This document shows, in pieces, positions 10,323 to 62,130 of a stretch of 64,000 nucleotides of DNA (positions are counted from its first letter, which is position 1; each line of letters opens with the position of its first letter). The notes under the pieces were generated by a model. That model was not told the origin of the DNA. It worked only from the letters and a program-made list of their open reading frames with translations, and did not search any database. The translations under genes were made by a program, and so were the position numbers. This DNA is from Candidatus Kaiserbacteria bacterium (GTDB lineage: Bacteria; Patescibacteriota; Minisyncoccia; Phycocordibacterales; Phycocordibacteraceae). The DNA is taken from contig CAWEXP010000010.1 of assembly GCA_963813065.1 (NCBI GenBank), forward strand, positions 96,250-160,249. The letters are read 5' to 3'.

Positions 10323-10361
10323 CCATGATCGTCCGCGAGCACATCACGCTCGCTCCACCGT

Positions 10362-10622
10362 ATGTTCTATCTATACGTACTCAAGAGCGATAAAGATCAA
10401 GAATTGTATATAGGTTCGACCAACAATCTCCGTCGCAGGATTAGCGAACATCAACAAGGTAAATCTTTTTCAACTTCCTTTCGAAGGCCTTTTGCTTTGG
10501 TGTATTACGAGGCGTATAGGAACGAGACAGACGCTCGTACGCGTGAGCACAGGTTGAAATTACGAGGACAAGCCCGACGCCAGCTATTGGCGCGCATTGA
10601 ATTGAGCATAGGAACTGAATAA
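10362..10622 (+). CDS. GIY-YIG nuclease family protein (small, 86 aa)
   Basis: YLYVLKSDKDQELYIGSTNNLRRRISEHQQG is a textbook GIY-YIG motif. Confidence 0.7.
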   Translation: MFYLYVLKSDKDQELYIGSTNNLRRRISEHQQGKSFSTSFRRPFALVYYEAYRNETDARTREHRLKLRGQARRQLLARIELSIGTE

Positions 10623-10629
10623 AGTTATC

Positions 10630-10763
10630 TCGCACACCCAACTGCGCATCGTGTCTTTTGCTTCCACGGAAGCGATGGAGAAATATTATTGTTATCGAAT
10701 TTATTGATTGTGGTAAAAATTTAGCGAAGACACACTAGAAGCAATGCGCAATTGGGTGTGCGA
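10630..10763. mobile_element. MITE-like element of about 134 bp with 20-bp terminal inverted repeats and a 6-bp GTTATC target-site duplication
   Basis: Left TIR TCGCACACCCAACTGCGCAT (10630-10649) versus reverse complement of the right TIR ATGCGCAATTGGGTGTGCGA (10744-10763) gives 19/20 matches. GTTATC lies directly outside both ends (10624-10629 and 10764-10769). Confidence 0.5.
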
Positions 10764-10894
10764 GTTATCCACACATCGAGAAATAATTCGCGCATATTTT
10801 TTTCGCGCGAGTGATAATACAGAGCAGAAACGTTTGCGTGATATTTTTTCTCGCAAACGGGTCGACTATACCAGCCATCATTCATACACAACAC

Positions 10895-10963
10895 CATGGC
10901 AAAGAAGGCAAAGAAGACGAAGAAAGTCGCAAAGAAGGTTGCAAAGAAGAAGTCTCGCCGCTA
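10895..10963 (+). CDS. Tiny lysine-rich ORF (MAKKAKKTKKVAKKVAKKKSRR, 22 aa); speculative
   Basis: ATG-initiated, very basic, and followed immediately by a strong hairpin terminator. No recognisable RBS. Confidence 0.2.
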
Positions 10964-10976
10964 GTTCGGCAAAGAC

Positions 10977-11006
10977 GCAAAACGCTCCCCTCCGGGAGCG
11001 TTTTGC
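10977..11006 (+). terminator. Rho-independent-type hairpin (13-bp perfect stem GCAAAACGCTCCC / GGGAGCGTTTTGC, 4-nt loop)
   Basis: Perfect inverted repeat read directly from the sequence, located just before the secA start. Confidence 0.45.
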
Positions 11007-11021
11007 GTTATAGTGCACACC

Positions 11022-13604
11022 ATGTTCAACCCGCTGTCCCGCTTCTTCTCTAAGAACCAATCCGCGGCCTTTCTGAAGGCTGCGGCCTCGGTCGTTTCTG
11101 CCGCAGGAGCACTCGAAGCCGAGCTGGAGAAGCTCTCGCAGGAAGACCTGCGGGCGAAGGTTGCCGAGCTGAAGGCGCGCGCAGGAAACGGCGTTCCCGA
11201 AGCCGATATTCCGCTTGTGTTTGCGCTCGTGCGTGAGGCGGCGCGCCGCACCCTCGCCCAGCGCCCTTTCGATGTTCAGCTCATCGGCGGTCTCGCGCTC
11301 GCGCGGGGCAAGATTGCCGAGATGCGTACGGGCGAGGGCAAAACCTTGGTTGCAACTCTGCCTGTCACCCTCGCTGCGCTTGCGGGGAAGGGGGTGCACA
11401 TCGTGACGGTGAATGATTATCTTGCGCGTCGTGACTCCGCATGGATGGGGCAGATCTATGACTATCTCGGGCTCTCGGTCGGCGTGATTACCTCGAGTGG
11501 TGCATATCGCTACGATGCCTCGCATGTCGAGAAGAAAGAAGATGCCGAGCGCGACGCCGCCGGGTCGTTCAAAGTTTTTTATGATTTTTTGCGTCCTTGC
11601 ACCAAGCGCGAAGCGTATGCGGCAGACCTCACCTACGCGACCAACAACGAGCTCGGGTTCGATTATCTGCGCGACAACACTGCCTACACCGCCGAACAGA
11701 TTTCTCAGCGTGGCCACGCCTATGCCATCGTCGACGAGATTGACTCAATCTTGATTGACGAAGCGCGCACCCCGCTCATCATCAGCGGACCGGCCGGCGA
11801 CTGGGGAATCTCTATCAGCAATTTGCGCAGATCGTACATGGTTTTAGTAAGGATGAGGATTATACGGTCGACGAGAAGCAAAAAGCCATCCAGATAACCG
11901 AAGCGGGGATGAAGAAAGCCGAACAGGCCCTCGGGATGGAAAATCTCTACACCGAAGGCGGTATCAAATATGCGCATCACCTCGAGACCGCGGTGCGCGC
12001 CGCGGCACTCTTCCACAAGGATAAAGAGTACGTCGTGAAGGATGGTGAGATTATGATTGTTGACGAATTCACGGGCCGTATGCAGCCCGGTCGCCGTTGG
12101 AGCGAAGGTTTGCACCAGGCGATTGAAGCAAAAGAAGGCGTATTGGTAAAAGAAGAGACACGCACCTATGCCTCGGTCACGTTCCAAAATTATTTCCGCA
12201 TGTACGAGAAGGTCGCGGGCATGACCGGTACCGCGCTCTCGAGCGAGGAAGAATTTTTCACCGTCTATGGGCTCGATGTGGTCGTCGTCCCGACGCACCG
12301 GCCCTCGGCGAGAAAAGACTTTGATGATCTCATCTTCCAGACTGCGGCCGGGAAGTATCGCGCAGTGGCCAAGCGGGTCAAACAATTCCACGAGAAGGGC
12401 CAGCCAGTGCTCATCGGCACGGTCTCGATCGAGGACAACGAGCTCGTGAGCCACTATCTCGATTCTGCGGGCGTCCCGCACGAGGTGTTGAACGCCAAGA
12501 ATCATGAACGCGAAGGCGAAATCATCGCCGAGGCAGGTGCGCCCGGGCCGCGTGACGGTCGCGACCAACCTCGCGGGCCGCGGTGTGGACATCAAGCTTG
12601 GTGGCGCTCTGGCAACTGTAGAGTCTCGCGCGCTCGTGGTGGAGAAAGGCGGCTTGGCGGTCATCGGCACCGAGCGGCACGACGCGCGCCGCATCGACAA
12701 CCAGCTCCGCGGACGTTCCGGCCGCCAGGGCGACCCGGGCGAGACGCGGTTCTTCGTCTCGCTCGAGGACAAACTCATGCGCGTCTTCGCGAGCGAGACG
12801 CTGAAGCGCGTGATGGGCGGCTTCGGCCTCCCCGAGGACGAGCCGATTGAGAGTGGGATGATTACTAAGTCGCTTGAGAGCGCGCAGGAGCGTATCGAGG
12901 GATTCAACTTCGATTCGCGCAAGCAGGTGCTCGCCTACGACGACGTGATGAACACCCAGCGTCTCTCCATCTACGCGCGCCGTCGCCGCGCCCTGCTCGG
13001 CACAAACGAGGAGGTTGTCGAGGAGGCGCGCACACTGCTTCGTGGCGAAAATACGGAAGTCAGACTTCCGTACCAGGTAGGGAAGTCTGACTTCCGTACT
13101 ATACTGGAGGCCAAGCAGGCAGAACTCGGCGAGCAGTTCATACCGTTGCTGCGCCGCCTCATCTTGCAGGTCATAGACACCTTCTGGCTTGAGCATCTCG
13201 ACACGATGGAGTACTTGCGCCGCTCCGTGTCGCTGCGCGCCTACGGCCAGCGCGATCCGCTTATCGAGTATCGCCGCGAGGGCTTGCAGCGCTTCCGCGC
13301 GATGGAGGAGGGCATCGCGCGCATGTTTGGCGAGACACTCCCCAATCTCACCCTCGCGCAGGACGCGGCCATCAAGCAGGAGGAGGCGCGGCTACGCGCG
13401 CAGCTCGAGAAGGCGGGCAGCGCATCGTTGTCCCCGGCGGGGGGCAAGGAGAGTGCCGTTGGCGCTGCGCATGCGCCCATCGTCAACGCGACCGGCCACG
13501 GCAGGAACGATGTGGTCACGGTCAAGAAGGGCACCGAGACGCAAACTATTAAATATAAAAAGGCCGAGGCCCTCCTCGCCGAGGGCTGGGAATTGATGCC
13601 ATAA
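11022..13604 (+). CDS. secA: Preprotein translocase ATPase SecA, interrupted by two single-base frame shifts (near 11797 and near 12545). The middle 0.75 kb is in another frame and the two shifts compensate.
   Basis: The three listed ORFs (11013-11897, 11909-12850, 12504-13604) together carry contiguous SecA motifs: [39 protein letters not shown] | LGNLYQQ...[44 protein letters not shown] | [45 protein letters not shown]. Both junctions sit in G/C homopolymer-like runs. Confidence 0.85.
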
Positions 13605-19602: not shown

Positions 19603-20212
19603 CGTATTTTATAATTTTCTCGTCTCGGATAGCAGAGATATAAAAATAGAACAGAAAGAAGTGAATTGAGTCTAAAATGCTCAAACCAATTGATGCTGAA
19701 GCATACTAAGTAGTTTGCTGATCAATTTTTGAATGATGGCCCTGATGTGAGAATTTGGAGTAATTATCTATTTCTTTTACTCACCTGTGAATATTGTATA
19801 TAAAGAATGCCTCTCCCCGTGTGTAAGAACCAACGTGTAGTATTTTTATACTTCTACAAGCACATCGATACATACAATACATACGTTATAGCTAGGCTTT
19901 ATAAGCCAATGTCGGAGAGCCGTCCTGCTGATCTAAATATATAGTCTCTATTTCAAATTTTTGCGCAAATATATCTCAGATCGTCATCGCCGAGGTCATT
20001 TTAACTCATCTGAATTGTTCCGAGGCTTATGCTTGTGCTGTCAGCGTGACTTCGTCGATTTTGGAGGTGCTGATCTATACAGAAAACATCCTTACTCGCC
20101 CATTTATTTTCCGTACAAAAAATTCTCGAAAAAACTGCTTTGACTATCCACAAGCAAACACTAACGGATACCGGATAAACCAGATAAACTATAGTTAATT
20201 CGGTTATCCGAC
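19603..20212 (+). promoter_or_regulatory. 610-bp AT-rich, non-coding leader upstream of the giant surface-protein gene (candidate promoter/regulatory region)
   Basis: Sharp local drop in GC, no ORF longer than 60 codons, and several short inverted repeats (for example CGGATAAACC...GGTTATCCG just before the ATG). Confidence 0.3.
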
Positions 20213-37001: not shown

Positions 37002-38153
37002 ATGATGAGGAAATTACTCTGGGCTCTTTCGCTATTTGTATTTCTCACGCCGATGGGTGCTCATGCGCTCACCATCTCTCCCAGCTCCGGCACGGATGGG
37101 ATTATTCATTGGAGTAGCCCAACGATGCCTGCGGCTATGGATGGCAGTCGGCAAATATTATTTTTTAATTCCGAGGGTTACTTTACCGATTATCTGTATC
37201 AGACCAATGACCCCGGAAGCGTTCCTGATTGTTATGCGGGGACAGGGATTTGGAATATTAACGGCGTCAATTGTTATCCATGGCGTGGATACAGTGCCCC
37301 CAACGATTATCCCGAAAATGGTCGCTCCGGATTTGCTCCCAAATACGGAACCTATAGGATGCTCGAGATTAGTTCATGGCCCGCAGACAGTGGGAACAAT
37401 TGTTGGACAGCGCCCGATAATCCTAGCGGAATGAGCCCAGACTATCGTGGCGGCGATTTGTCTTTTGATTGCTGGAAGTCCATGATAATTGCAAACGGCT
37501 TGTACGTTGGAGACGCTACATATACCTACAATCCGCCTGACATAACAGCTCCAGTTATTGCCCAATCATTTGATATCGCTACTCAAGCTACCTCAAGCGA
37601 TGGCATATCGGTTGACTACTTGGTTCCAACTGCAACTGACGACGTCGACGGTACTGACTCAGTCTTATGCACGCCGCCGTCCGGAAGTTTCTTTGCAATC
37701 GGCACGTCAACCATTTCCTGTACAGCAACTGATGCGGCGGGGAATACCGCGACCTCAACTTTTGAAGTCATAGTCCAAGATGCGACTGCATCGATGCCAA
37801 CAAATTCTTCTCCATCACCGCAAACTTCCGTCAGCAACGGTAGCATCGGCATTTTTCCCGTGCTCGCGAGCGGGAGTGGAGCGGGTGCACTATCGCCCGT
37901 GATAGTGGCAACCAGCACTGCGACTTCTTCGACGCTTGTCGCACAGGCATCGAGCACCTCGTTCGCGGTGATTGCCAGCACAACGCATCGGATAAGCCTC
38001 GCTCTGCATCATCAAAAAACCGATATTCCTAGCCATATTTCTGCGCCTGCCATCCCCAATTTCAGCCAAGCGGCGGCGGTTGTGGCGGCTCCTAGTACGG
38101 GGATCGGCGCCTGGCTCTGGGCCGTTATCCACAAGCTTTTCGGTATGCGATAA
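37002..38153 (+). CDS. Secreted HYR (hyalin-repeat, Ig-like) domain protein with a Ser/Thr-rich stalk and C-terminal TM anchor
   Basis: Signal peptide MMRKLLWALSLFVFLTPMGAHA. HYR-like PDITAPVIAQSFDI...VDYLVPTATDDVDGTDSVLCTPPSGSFFAIGTSTISCTATDAAGNTATSTFEVIVQD. C-terminal hydrophobic IGAWLWAVI. Confidence 0.55.
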   Translation: MMRKLLWALSLFVFLTPMGAHALTISPSSGTDGIIHWSSPTMPAAMDGSRQILFFNSEGYFTDYLYQTNDPGSVPDCYAGTGIWNINGVNCYPWRGYSAPNDYPENGRSGFAPKYGTYRMLEISSWPADSGNNCWTAPDNPSGMSPDYRGGDLSFDCWKSMIIANGLYVGDATYTYNPPDITAPVIAQSFDIATQATSSDGISVDYLVPTATDDVDGTDSVLCTPPSGSFFAIGTSTISCTATDAAGNTATSTFEVIVQDATASMPTNSSPSPQTSVSNGSIGIFPVLASGSGAGALSPVIVATSTATSSTLVAQASSTSFAVIASTTHRISLALHHQKTDIPSHISAPAIPNFSQAAAVVAAPSTGIGAWLWAVIHKLFGMR

Positions 38154-38160
38154 TAGGTGG

Positions 38161-45308: not shown

Positions 45309-45942
45309 ATGTTTACGCTCGAAGTAACCCAGAGAAAGGCGGGTAGCCCAGGCGCGCTCCGGCGCGCCGGGTCGGTCCCTGCGGTCGTCTATGGCGCCCA
45401 CCAGGCGTCAACGCCGATTGCGGTCGATGCCCGCGCATTCGACAAGGCCTTCAAGGTCGCCGGCGAGTCGTCGGTCATTTCGCTCACCGGTCTCGGCGCG
45501 GCTATTCCCGTACTCGTCCAGGAAGTTGATCTCGACCCGCTGACCTACCTCCCGCGCCACATCGATTTCTACGCCATCACCAAGGGCGAGAAGGTCGAGG
45601 TCGCCGTGCCACTTGTCTTCGTCGGCGAGTCGGCGGCGGTCAAGGGCGGCGCCAATCTCATCAAGGTGCTCCGCGAGCTCGAGGTCAAGGCCGACCCGAT
45701 GAATCTCCCCGCCTCCTTCGAGGTTGAATCTCGCGCTCCTCGTCAACATCGACGACCAAATTCACGCCGGCGATCTCAAGCTCCCGGCGGGTGTCGAGCT
45801 CATGGTTGAGCCCGAGGAAGTCGTTGCACTCGCGCAGGAAGTGGTTGAGGAGAAGGAGGAAGTCGCACCGGCTGACCTCTCGGCTATCGAGGTGGAGAAG
45901 AAGGGCAAGGAGGAGGCTACAGAGCCCGAAGCCAAAATTTAG
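45309..45942 (+). CDS. rplY: Ribosomal protein L25/general stress protein Ctc, with one frame shift near 45729
   Basis: N-terminal L25 domain ...RRAGSVPAVVYG. The C-terminal LALLVNIDDQIHAGDLKLPAGVELMVEPEEVVA continues in the +1 frame. Confidence 0.75.
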
Positions 45943-45984
45943 GACATCCGATGTCCTAAATGCATTTGGACATCGGATGTCCTA
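45940..45984. repeat. Pair of REP1-family palindromes in opposite orientation (BIME-like doublet): TAGGACATCCGATGTCCTA and TGGACATCGGATGTCCTA
   Basis: Copies at 45940-45958 and 45967-45984, immediately after the rplY stop. The loops CCG and CGG are inverted relative to each other. Confidence 0.55.
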
Positions 45985-46008
45985 ATTCGCGTGCTAAACT
46001 AGCCGGAC

Positions 46009-54313: not shown

Positions 54314-54451
54314 CCGCGCCTCGCGGCATCCATAATTTTGGGTACGCGATTTTCTTGCTAGAAAATCGCTCAGTCCTCACGCCGTCGCGTTGCGGAGCCC
54401 CAAAATTACGGACGCCGCCCGGCACTATCACATGATATAATTTTCACACTT

Positions 54452-61592: not shown

Positions 61593-62075
61593 ATGCCGGT
61601 GCCGTTTTATTCCCAGCATGCCGAGGACGTCCCCCTAGAGTGGCGCCACCGCGCGTGCGGTATCATTGCGCTTCGCATGGCGCTCGCACACTTTGGTAAA
61701 GAGGTGTCGCCCACGGAACTTATCGAGACCGGTGTCGCGACCGGCGCGTACGACCCGAAGTTTGGTTGGCGGCACGATGGTCTCATCGCGCTCGCGCAGA
61801 AGTGGGGCGTGAAGGCTGAGCGGAAAGAATTTAAGAAAAACCTCGAAGAGGGGAGTGTGTATCTTCGCGAGTCGCTCGCGAATGGCCAGGTCCCCATCGT
61901 CTCGCTCCGCGTCGAGGGCATAACTGACACGCACCTCGTCGCGCTCGTCGGCGCCGACGCAAACGGCTTCCTCTACAACGACCCCGCGCTCGACGCCACG
62001 ACCGGCTCGCATCTCGCTATCTCCAACGTCGACTTCCTCCGTCGCTGGCGCGCTCTCGCGATTTTCGTGGGATAA
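61593..62075 (+). CDS. Papain-like cysteine peptidase domain protein (Peptidase_C39_2/BtrH-N-like)
   Basis: YSQHAEDVPLEWRHRACGIIALRMALAHFG resembles the C39-like catalytic Cys region (Y-Q...CGP-S-AM-L). Starts 2 nt after the pheT stop. Confidence 0.45.
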   Translation: MPVPFYSQHAEDVPLEWRHRACGIIALRMALAHFGKEVSPTELIETGVATGAYDPKFGWRHDGLIALAQKWGVKAERKEFKKNLEEGSVYLRESLANGQVPIVSLRVEGITDTHLVALVGADANGFLYNDPALDATTGSHLAISNVDFLRRWRALAIFVG

Positions 62076-62130
62076 AAAAAGCGCCTGCGGTGAAGCAGGT
62101 CGACTTCTCCGCAGGCGCTTTTTTTATCCC
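62069..62130. terminator. Bidirectional rho-independent terminator: 22-bp perfect inverted repeat GGGATAAAAAAAGCGCCTGCGG ... CCGCAGGCGCTTTTTTTATCCC
   Basis: GC-rich stem flanked by an A-run and a T-run, between the pheT operon and gyrB. Confidence 0.6.

Follow-up and report, generated by a model that had tools for sequence, protein, structure and literature searches.

A hairpin-forming repeat inserted beside a minimal GIY-YIG nuclease gene in Patescibacteria: a possible two-part selfish module

The murB-secA locus of a 64,000-nucleotide stretch of Candidatus Kaiserbacteria DNA, which we analyzed as a whole and refer to as the window, carries a 134-bp non-coding insert directly downstream of a small GIY-YIG nuclease gene. 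We give a roughly even chance to the interpretation that gene and insert are the two parts of a selfish module, which would combine a minimal nuclease of the SLX1/UPF0213 type with a hairpin-forming cis repeat that would insert with a 5-6-bp duplication of its target. This interpretation draws on the insertion itself, its duplicated target, the empty sites of relatives, the co-occurrence of gene and repeat in three genomic contexts, the conserved termini and covarying arms of the repeat, and the replacement of the repeat independently of its surroundings. The putative module occurs in Patescibacteria and is apparently undescribed: the literature searched, which leaves out many subscription journals, contained no mention of a bacterial GIY-YIG gene coupled to an inverted repeat. 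As literature coverage is incomplete, "undescribed" is meant provisionally.

The insert is bounded by a left arm, TCGCACACCCAACTGCGCAT, and a right arm, ATGCGCAATTGGGTGTGCGA, whose coordinates are given in Table 1 together with those of the neighboring features. Re-reading of the sequence bears out the 20-bp terminal inverted repeats described in an earlier note on this DNA: the arms are complementary at 19 of 20 positions, and the sole mismatch is C.A on the plus strand, which corresponds to G.T on the minus strand. The hexamer GTTATC directly abuts both arms, as had likewise been described, and the empty sites found in relatives show it to be a true target duplication. An alternative reading of the boundaries would give a 7-bp duplication (AGTTATC) with 19-bp arms. 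Only spurious ORFs cross the insert. GTTATC occurs 13 times on the plus strand of the 64 kb, and 3 of these 13 copies fall inside the 146 bp made up of the insert and its direct repeats. The arm 20-mer, allowing up to three mismatches, is present in the window at these two sites only (0 expected from 100 shuffles), and no longer inverted repeat spanning up to 400 bp exists anywhere in the window. Compared with shuffled sequences, the single-strand fold is markedly stable as RNA of either strand (z=-5.7 and -8.2) and as DNA (z=-5.9).

Table 1. Features of the window around the insert, listed by position.
Feature	Position	Strand	Remarks
murB remnant, first 12 codons MIVREHITLAPP	10325..10360	+	
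Stand-alone GIY-YIG nuclease gene	10362..10622	+	86 aa, UPF0213/SLX1-like; Pfam PF01541, E=1.5e-16
Left direct repeat GTTATC	10624..10629		target duplication
Left arm	10630..10649		terminus TCGCACAC conserved; inner 10-12 nt lineage-specific
Insert interior	10650..10743		94 nt, AT-rich, without conserved ORF
Competing pair in interior	10651-10657 / 10727-10733		GTGTCTT / AAGACAC
Inner helix in interior	about 10659-10664 / 10738-10743		paired segments
Third GTTATC	10691-10696		inside insert loop
Right arm	10744..10763		terminal letters GTGTGCGA
Right direct repeat GTTATC and rest of native motif GTTATCCACAC	10764..10774	+	GTTATC at 10764-10769
Native leader/promoter region of tiny ORF	10775..10895	+	outside insert
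Tiny Lys/Ala-rich ORF MAKKAKKTKKVAKKVAKKKSRR	10896..10964	+	native context
Terminator-like hairpin	10978-11005		3' of tiny ORF
secA	11013-13604		start 11013; native context

Three further inverted repeats of the window share no sequence kinship with the insert. One lies between two ORFs at 54318-54423 (25-nt arms, 56-nt spacer), another is a 21-nt near-perfect palindrome pair at 45939-45985, and the third is a terminator-like hairpin with 27-nt arms at 62069-62130.

Relatives provide the native state of the locus. Their gene order runs from a wzy-like gene over murB, the GIY-YIG gene where there is one, and a tiny Lys-rich ORF to secA, which is followed by obg. The upstream protein in the window (734 aa, Wzy_C/TPR) assigns the DNA to Patescibacteria (Paceibacteria/Kaiserbacteria-like) and is only approximately 66% identical to its nearest counterparts in other genomes. 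The GIY-YIG gene occupies the position of murB in the window, where murB is cut to about 12 codons of its N-terminus (the corresponding residues in relatives are MNIREHTRLAPFTTF and MIVRSGIPLAPHTTF); a tblastn search with MurB gave no match to the remaining gene anywhere in the 64-kb window. Four relatives that lack the GIY-YIG gene (L005, L008/9, L010 and L011) have one uninterrupted AAAGTTATCCACAC in the murB-secA spacer, located 100-135 nt upstream of the tiny ORF and followed by the conserved leader. The window has the arrangement AAAGTTATC, 134 bp, GTTATCCACAC. The empty site for which the earlier note had suggested to look is thus present at the homologous spot, and because these four insert-free relatives carry a single uninterrupted copy, GTTATC can be identified as the duplicated target. 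The native conserved motif GTTATCCACAC begins with the right GTTATC, and it also adjoins the right side of the repeat in L012, L016 and L017. The duplication therefore keeps the motif intact, and the module in the window leaves both GTTATCCACAC and the promoter of the tiny ORF-secA operon unharmed.

The TAA stop codon of the GIY-YIG ORF lies 7 nt 5' of the left arm. Its product has the catalytic domain of the GIY-YIG class with the conserved Tyr, Arg and Glu, and the residues Y5, Y16, G18, R26, H30 and E62 are invariant across 33 homologues. A profile search of the PDB retrieved the UPF0213 proteins 1zg2 and 1ywl as top matches, then SLX1, with I-TevI behind them; the AlphaFold model (pLDDT 93.6) is nearest to 1zg2 and to Slx1 nuclease domains. 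According to this single-domain model, which spans all 86 aa, the protein is a bare catalytic domain devoid of a separate DNA-binding domain. Searches of NCBIfam and PADLOC assigned the protein to no specific family or defense system. SLX1 belongs to the structure-specific nucleases and cleaves branched as well as stem-loop DNA at junctions, and kinship with it makes a hairpin substrate plausible for the GIY-YIG protein. By analogy, the nuclease might act on the adjacent repeat, which would link the two as enzyme and substrate. Gene and repeat also differ from their surroundings in composition. The ORF has a GC content of 0.44 vs 0.566 for the rest of the window, and the stretch 10325-10960 as a whole has approximately 0.42-0.46 within a region of 0.55-0.68. 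ORF and repeat are 10-13 points lower in GC than their surroundings in all six lineages.

Homologues of the GIY-YIG protein number roughly 200 or more and reach 85% identity, and DNA was taken for five of them, comprising 15 contigs from independent samples. Each of these contigs, whose GIY-YIG genes are 67-85% identical, possesses a homologous inverted repeat (five further lineages, three contexts), and where relatives are without the gene at the murB-secA locus, the repeat is absent too. The first context is the locus of the window itself (L012-15, L016 and L017-23), where ORF stop, GTTATC, a repeat of about 133 nt and GTTATCCACAC follow each other. In L024 (protein 73% identical) the repeat comes after the ORF, between a 79-aa ORF and a convergent rpsG. 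It is flanked there by GTTTAC and GTCTAC (5/6), the right flank takes in the rpsG stop codon, and the empty site before insertion would have been GTCTACCACGC after rpsG. In L025/26 (protein 67% identical), arms that match at 21 of 21 positions bracket the ORF and form a unit of about 304 bp between murD and murI. Its flanks, TATGA and CATGA, supply the stop codon of murD and the start codon of murI, which is the outcome expected from duplicating an ATGA stop/start overlap, with GGGGTATGATCGG as the presumed empty site. The ORF is thus found outside the repeat and its duplicated target in five of six lineages and is bracketed by the arms in one (L025). A third arm or a GTTATC 5' of the ORF, either of which would bound the whole unit, was represented by weak candidates only, such as AAGTTCACC in L017. 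Since the four murB-secA loci are orthologous, their GTTATC repeats count as one event and not as four; judged by their flanks, the candidate independent duplications are those of L024 (5/6) and L025 (4/5).

A separate observation concerns a spacer in L025 that precedes the GIY-YIG unit by 1.35 kb. Positions 1490-1625 (328-463 in L026) read CCGCGCACACGG...CGCGTGTGCGGG with inner TATCGCGG/CCGCGATA, and may represent a solo repeat in degenerate form; this stretch gave no match to the covariance model.

The earlier note had interpreted the insert as a MITE-like, non-autonomous cut-and-paste element that inserted just after the GIY-YIG gene. An insertion bounded by terminal inverted repeats and accompanied by a target duplication is what the data support, but adjacency of a generic MITE to the gene by chance is contradicted by a repeat that accompanies every homologue examined, in three unrelated contexts. 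With moderate confidence, we consider the supposed independent MITE to be better read as a cis partner of the nuclease gene. The insert is smaller than about 500 bp, non-coding, bounded by terminal inverted repeats and flanked by a target duplication that was checked against the empty site, all of which is typical of MITEs; the multiple dispersed copies that are equally typical were not found, as the 64-kb window holds a single one. Neither pattern searches nor a covariance model detected a further copy in the window, and the model, built from five homologous elements, found no extra copy in the window and 13 related loci taken together (156 kb total). The search for other copies of the arms that the earlier note had proposed was extended to public collections, where exact 20-mer scans gave 2 matches in GTDB representative genomes, 2 in JGI metagenomes and 0 in IMG/VR. 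All of these were single arms within unrelated coding DNA, at chance level. The relaxed pattern CGCACACYNA-N85-115-TNRGTGTGCG matched ten times in IMG/VR, in no case with complementary inner arms or a GIY-YIG gene, and GIY-YIG relatives from IMG/VR do not exceed 48% identity and lack a repeat of this kind. Among plasmids and phages, tblastn returned no match to the GIY-YIG protein.

One alternative is an ordinary non-autonomous MITE of a DDE insertion-sequence family, situated by chance beside an unrelated GIY-YIG gene. Such an element would fit the terminal inverted repeats, the 6-bp duplication, the small size and the lack of an ORF, and bacterial MITEs such as Correia/NEMIS of Neisseria, RUP and Nezha resemble the insert further in their length of 100-150 bp, their folding into a long hairpin and their intergenic insertion near promoters. 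We nevertheless consider this explanation very improbable. The same gene family is adjacent in six lineages and three unrelated contexts, the window and the exact-arm scans of three public collections revealed neither other copies nor a parent element with these arms, and the arms are complementary across diverged orthologous copies, which would not be maintained in a dead MITE. MITEs are characterized by many copies and share their ends with an insertion sequence that encodes a DDE-type transposase, whereas the insert is present once per locus, always beside or around the GIY-YIG gene, and compensatory changes have preserved the pairing of its arms. In L025 there is a version with these termini that includes a gene; this sole gene encodes the GIY-YIG nuclease, which is not a known transposase.

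While the termini YCGCACAC...GTGTGCGR are conserved in all lineages, the inner arms are specific to each of them (CTGCGCAT, CTCGGCAT, CATAGTAT, TTTTGTCAT and CTTCGCACC) and complementary inside each element, with arms of the homologues matching at 19-21 of 20-21 positions. The 20-bp stem is 98% paired in the five-sequence alignment, and both-sided changes affect 9 of its 20 pairs, a value reached by none of 500 shuffles. As a control, sliding the partner by 1-3 columns lowers pairing to 26-47%. RNAalifold also predicts an inner 8-bp helix. Identity of the interior among lineages is only 41-55%, with the exception of L012 vs L017. On the evidence of these alignments, the stem is under constraint, and the inner arms covary to stay complementary.

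Such strong covariation could also be displayed by a structured RNA belonging to the nuclease gene cassette, in the form of a hairpin in the 3' UTR or, in L025, of a clamp that joins the 5' and 3' sides of the ORF. The RNA would control how stable the mRNA of a potentially toxic nuclease is, or how well it is translated, for instance by serving as a substrate of RNase III, and the repeat would move only as part of the gene. The stem does lie within the likely transcript, either right after the stop codon or round the ORF (L025), and the RNA folds far better than shuffles. We still regard a structured RNA as rather unlikely, because it leaves the duplicated target, the empty sites, the conserved termini and the exchange of the repeat alone in L012 unexplained. 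Rfam contained nothing meaningful for the insert at gathering or permissive thresholds, and the miRNA-precursor models that did match, which are generic long hairpins, remained sub-threshold (24-29 bits vs thresholds of 85-140). The arm mismatches are C.A in the window (G.U on the minus strand only), U.G on the plus strand in L017 and C.U in L012. Given this lack of strand preference, RNA from one particular strand is not favored.

Movement of the repeat can be traced by comparing lineages at the murB-secA locus, where the distribution of the gene is patchy. By the N-terminal part of SecA, the gene-carrying L016 and L017 are closest to the gene-less L010 (84% identity), and SecA of the window is 73-77% identical to those of L010, L016 and L017; the GIY-YIG protein of the window is 79-85% identical to those of L012, L016 and L017. 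The repeats of L012 and L017 are 91% identical, compared with 75% for the ORF, 78% for the leader and 71% for the end of murB, so that identity in L012 changes from 91% inside the direct repeats to 75-78% outside. This alignment documents that the repeat alone was exchanged between lineages in L012, independently of its flanks. L012 additionally contains, between two further copies of GTTATC, a 37-nt remnant of another repeat type, the left arm of which is identical to that of L016. Swap and remnant together indicate that the repeat was replaced, or inserted again at a regenerated target, independently of the flanks.

A repeat that is exchangeable without the ORF would also be in line with a different division of roles: the repeat would exist in its own right as a hairpin or MITE-like element, and the GIY-YIG gene would exploit it as a parasite of the homing type. 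Cleavage by the nuclease would then fall at or near the repeat, and the gene would be copied beside the repeat, as in most lineages, or into its loop, as in L025; the position of the ORF outside the repeat in five lineages and inside in one agrees with this. Homing endonuclease genes of the free-standing GIY-YIG type are well established as a class, and those of the I-TevI and Seg kind have the catalytic domain, the presence or absence at a single locus, the low GC content and the patchy distribution in common with the gene described here. We judge a homing parasite quite improbable all the same. No solo repeat was seen, either in the gene-less relatives at the locus or with the covariance model, and the 86-aa protein consists of the catalytic domain only, without a DNA-binding domain of the I-TevI kind. 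Homing enzymes typically have a long DNA-binding domain and are associated with neither inverted repeats nor target duplications, and the protein lies nearer to UPF0213 and SLX1 than it does to I-TevI.

The position of the repeat between two transcription units could further suggest a host element, which would separate the upstream operon from the tiny ORF-secA promoter as a terminator or insulator, or else be an integron-like attC site of a gene cassette. An ORF followed by an imperfect palindrome does resemble a cassette, and the tandem of L012 a cassette-like array separated by the same 6-mer. A host element of either type seems barely credible to us, as relatives do without the repeat. A terminator is contradicted by GTTATCCACAC following the stem in place of a T-run, and the terminator scan made no call. 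An attC site would be expected to show RYYYAAC paired with GTTRRRY, whereas the ends are YCGCACAC/GTGTGCGR with direct copies of GTTATC, and GTTATC misfits GTTRRRY.

For the proposed module of nuclease and cis repeat, we suggest the following sequence of steps. Where the DNA is single-stranded, as in replication or following uptake, the two arms would form a hairpin; with a loop of 94-260 nt, extrusion of a cruciform from duplex DNA is unlikely. The SLX1/UPF0213-like nuclease could then recognize the conserved basal duplex of the stem and cut at the junction. Integration would take place at GTYWWC-like sites after cleavage staggered by 5-6 nt, and filling in of the staggered ends would give rise to the target duplication. 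The joining steps would have to be contributed by host repair or recombination, and we know of no strand-transfer activity in an 86-aa nuclease. The module might exist in two forms, one with arms that bracket the ORF (L025) and a split one with the ORF beside the repeat (window).

Several known systems share parts of this organization. REP/REPIN-RAYT systems combine a hairpin-forming palindromic repeat with a single small nuclease-type gene, which can be flanked by inverted repeats (as in L025) or accompanied by a doublet hairpin (as in the window), and their structure is conserved more than their sequence. RAYT is a Y1 HUH transposase, however, and REPINs reach tens to hundreds of copies and have no target duplication; the gene studied here is a GIY-YIG gene, and its palindromic unit is single-copy in the window. 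Elements of the IS200/IS605 type are similarly small, have ends that form hairpins in single-stranded DNA and insert site-specifically by a short target, but rely on an HUH/Y1 transposase, and their ends are not mutual inverted repeats and generate no target duplication. Proteins of the SLX1/UPF0213 group (YhbQ-like, COG2827) are the best matches in sequence and fold, and the type of substrate that SLX1 cuts is what the repeat would offer. SLX1 works with SLX4 in eukaryotic repair. To our knowledge, UPF0213 proteins have no assigned function, and the literature searched yielded no association of UPF0213 with a cis repeat.

A bolder and tentative reading, which we consider possible but doubtful, is that of a new class of minimal prokaryotic mobile element, which would encode a single protein, an SLX1/UPF0213-like GIY-YIG nuclease of 86-88 aa with the element's own hairpin-forming repeat as its target. 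The unit of about 304 bp in L025 would then represent the autonomous form, and the ORF with the adjacent 134-bp repeat in the window the split form. We know of no insertion sequence as small as about 304 bp. If the nuclease does mobilize the repeat, a bare GIY-YIG domain would serve in place of a DDE, HUH or recombinase enzyme, and part of the large UPF0213/COG2827 family would receive a first function. This would also provide a testable function for the widespread stand-alone GIY-YIG proteins of the UPF0213/YhbQ type, as well as an example of selfish DNA that persists in the tiny, streamlined genomes of Patescibacteria. Read conservatively, the data describe a conserved partnership of gene and hairpin with covariation, empty sites and an observed replacement.

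The native side of the insertion site also has features of its own. The motif AAAGTTATCCACAC upstream of the tiny ORF is conserved in nine lineages, and next to it comes a conserved leader that includes GATAAT and a hairpin, AGAAACGTTTGCG..CGCAAACGGGTCGAC; in the window this leader contains GTGATAAT as well as the hairpin, and it can be aligned in nine lineages at 54-84% identity. Motif and leader are a candidate regulatory region or RNA leader, for which Rfam returned no match. Within AAAGTTATCCACAC lies TTATCCACA, the E. coli DnaA-box consensus. A replication origin was considered on account of this DnaA-box-like motif and dropped, there being a single box and, at the scale of the window, no convincing skew turn at 10.5 kb. 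The sole other GTTATCCACA of the window is found at 38124-38160, where GATAAT follows 15 nt downstream and an ORF starts just after; it is possibly the same regulatory motif as the one upstream of the tiny ORF. The position of the tiny ORF just upstream of secA is conserved in all relatives, and its length varies between approximately 16 and 65 aa.

The genes of the locus vary as well. MurB at the locus (L003, L005, L008, L010, L011, L016 and L017) falls into two types that are about 35% identical, and these types do not track SecA similarity, for which reason the locus looks prone to recombination. Two frameshifts interrupt secA of the window. One, at about 11801-11810, leads from frame 3 into frame 2, and the other, at about 12540-12547, from frame 2 into frame 3; each lies within a G/C-rich run, and homology goes on in the shifted frames. 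These are either assembly or sequencing errors or the mark of a pseudogene of an essential gene. Further downstream, secA holds an in-frame insertion of 12 aa (13052-13098) that is absent in five relatives. It is made up of two tandem 21-nt palindromes, TACGGAAGTCAGACTTCCGTA and TAGGGAAGTCTGACTTCCGTA, has no other copy in the window and is reminiscent of in-frame insertions of palindromic elements. Elsewhere in the window, a 610-bp AT-rich non-coding stretch (19603-20212) precedes an ORF of 2102 aa and contains CTATCCACA (about 20146), GGTTATCC (about 20202) and several short inverted repeats.
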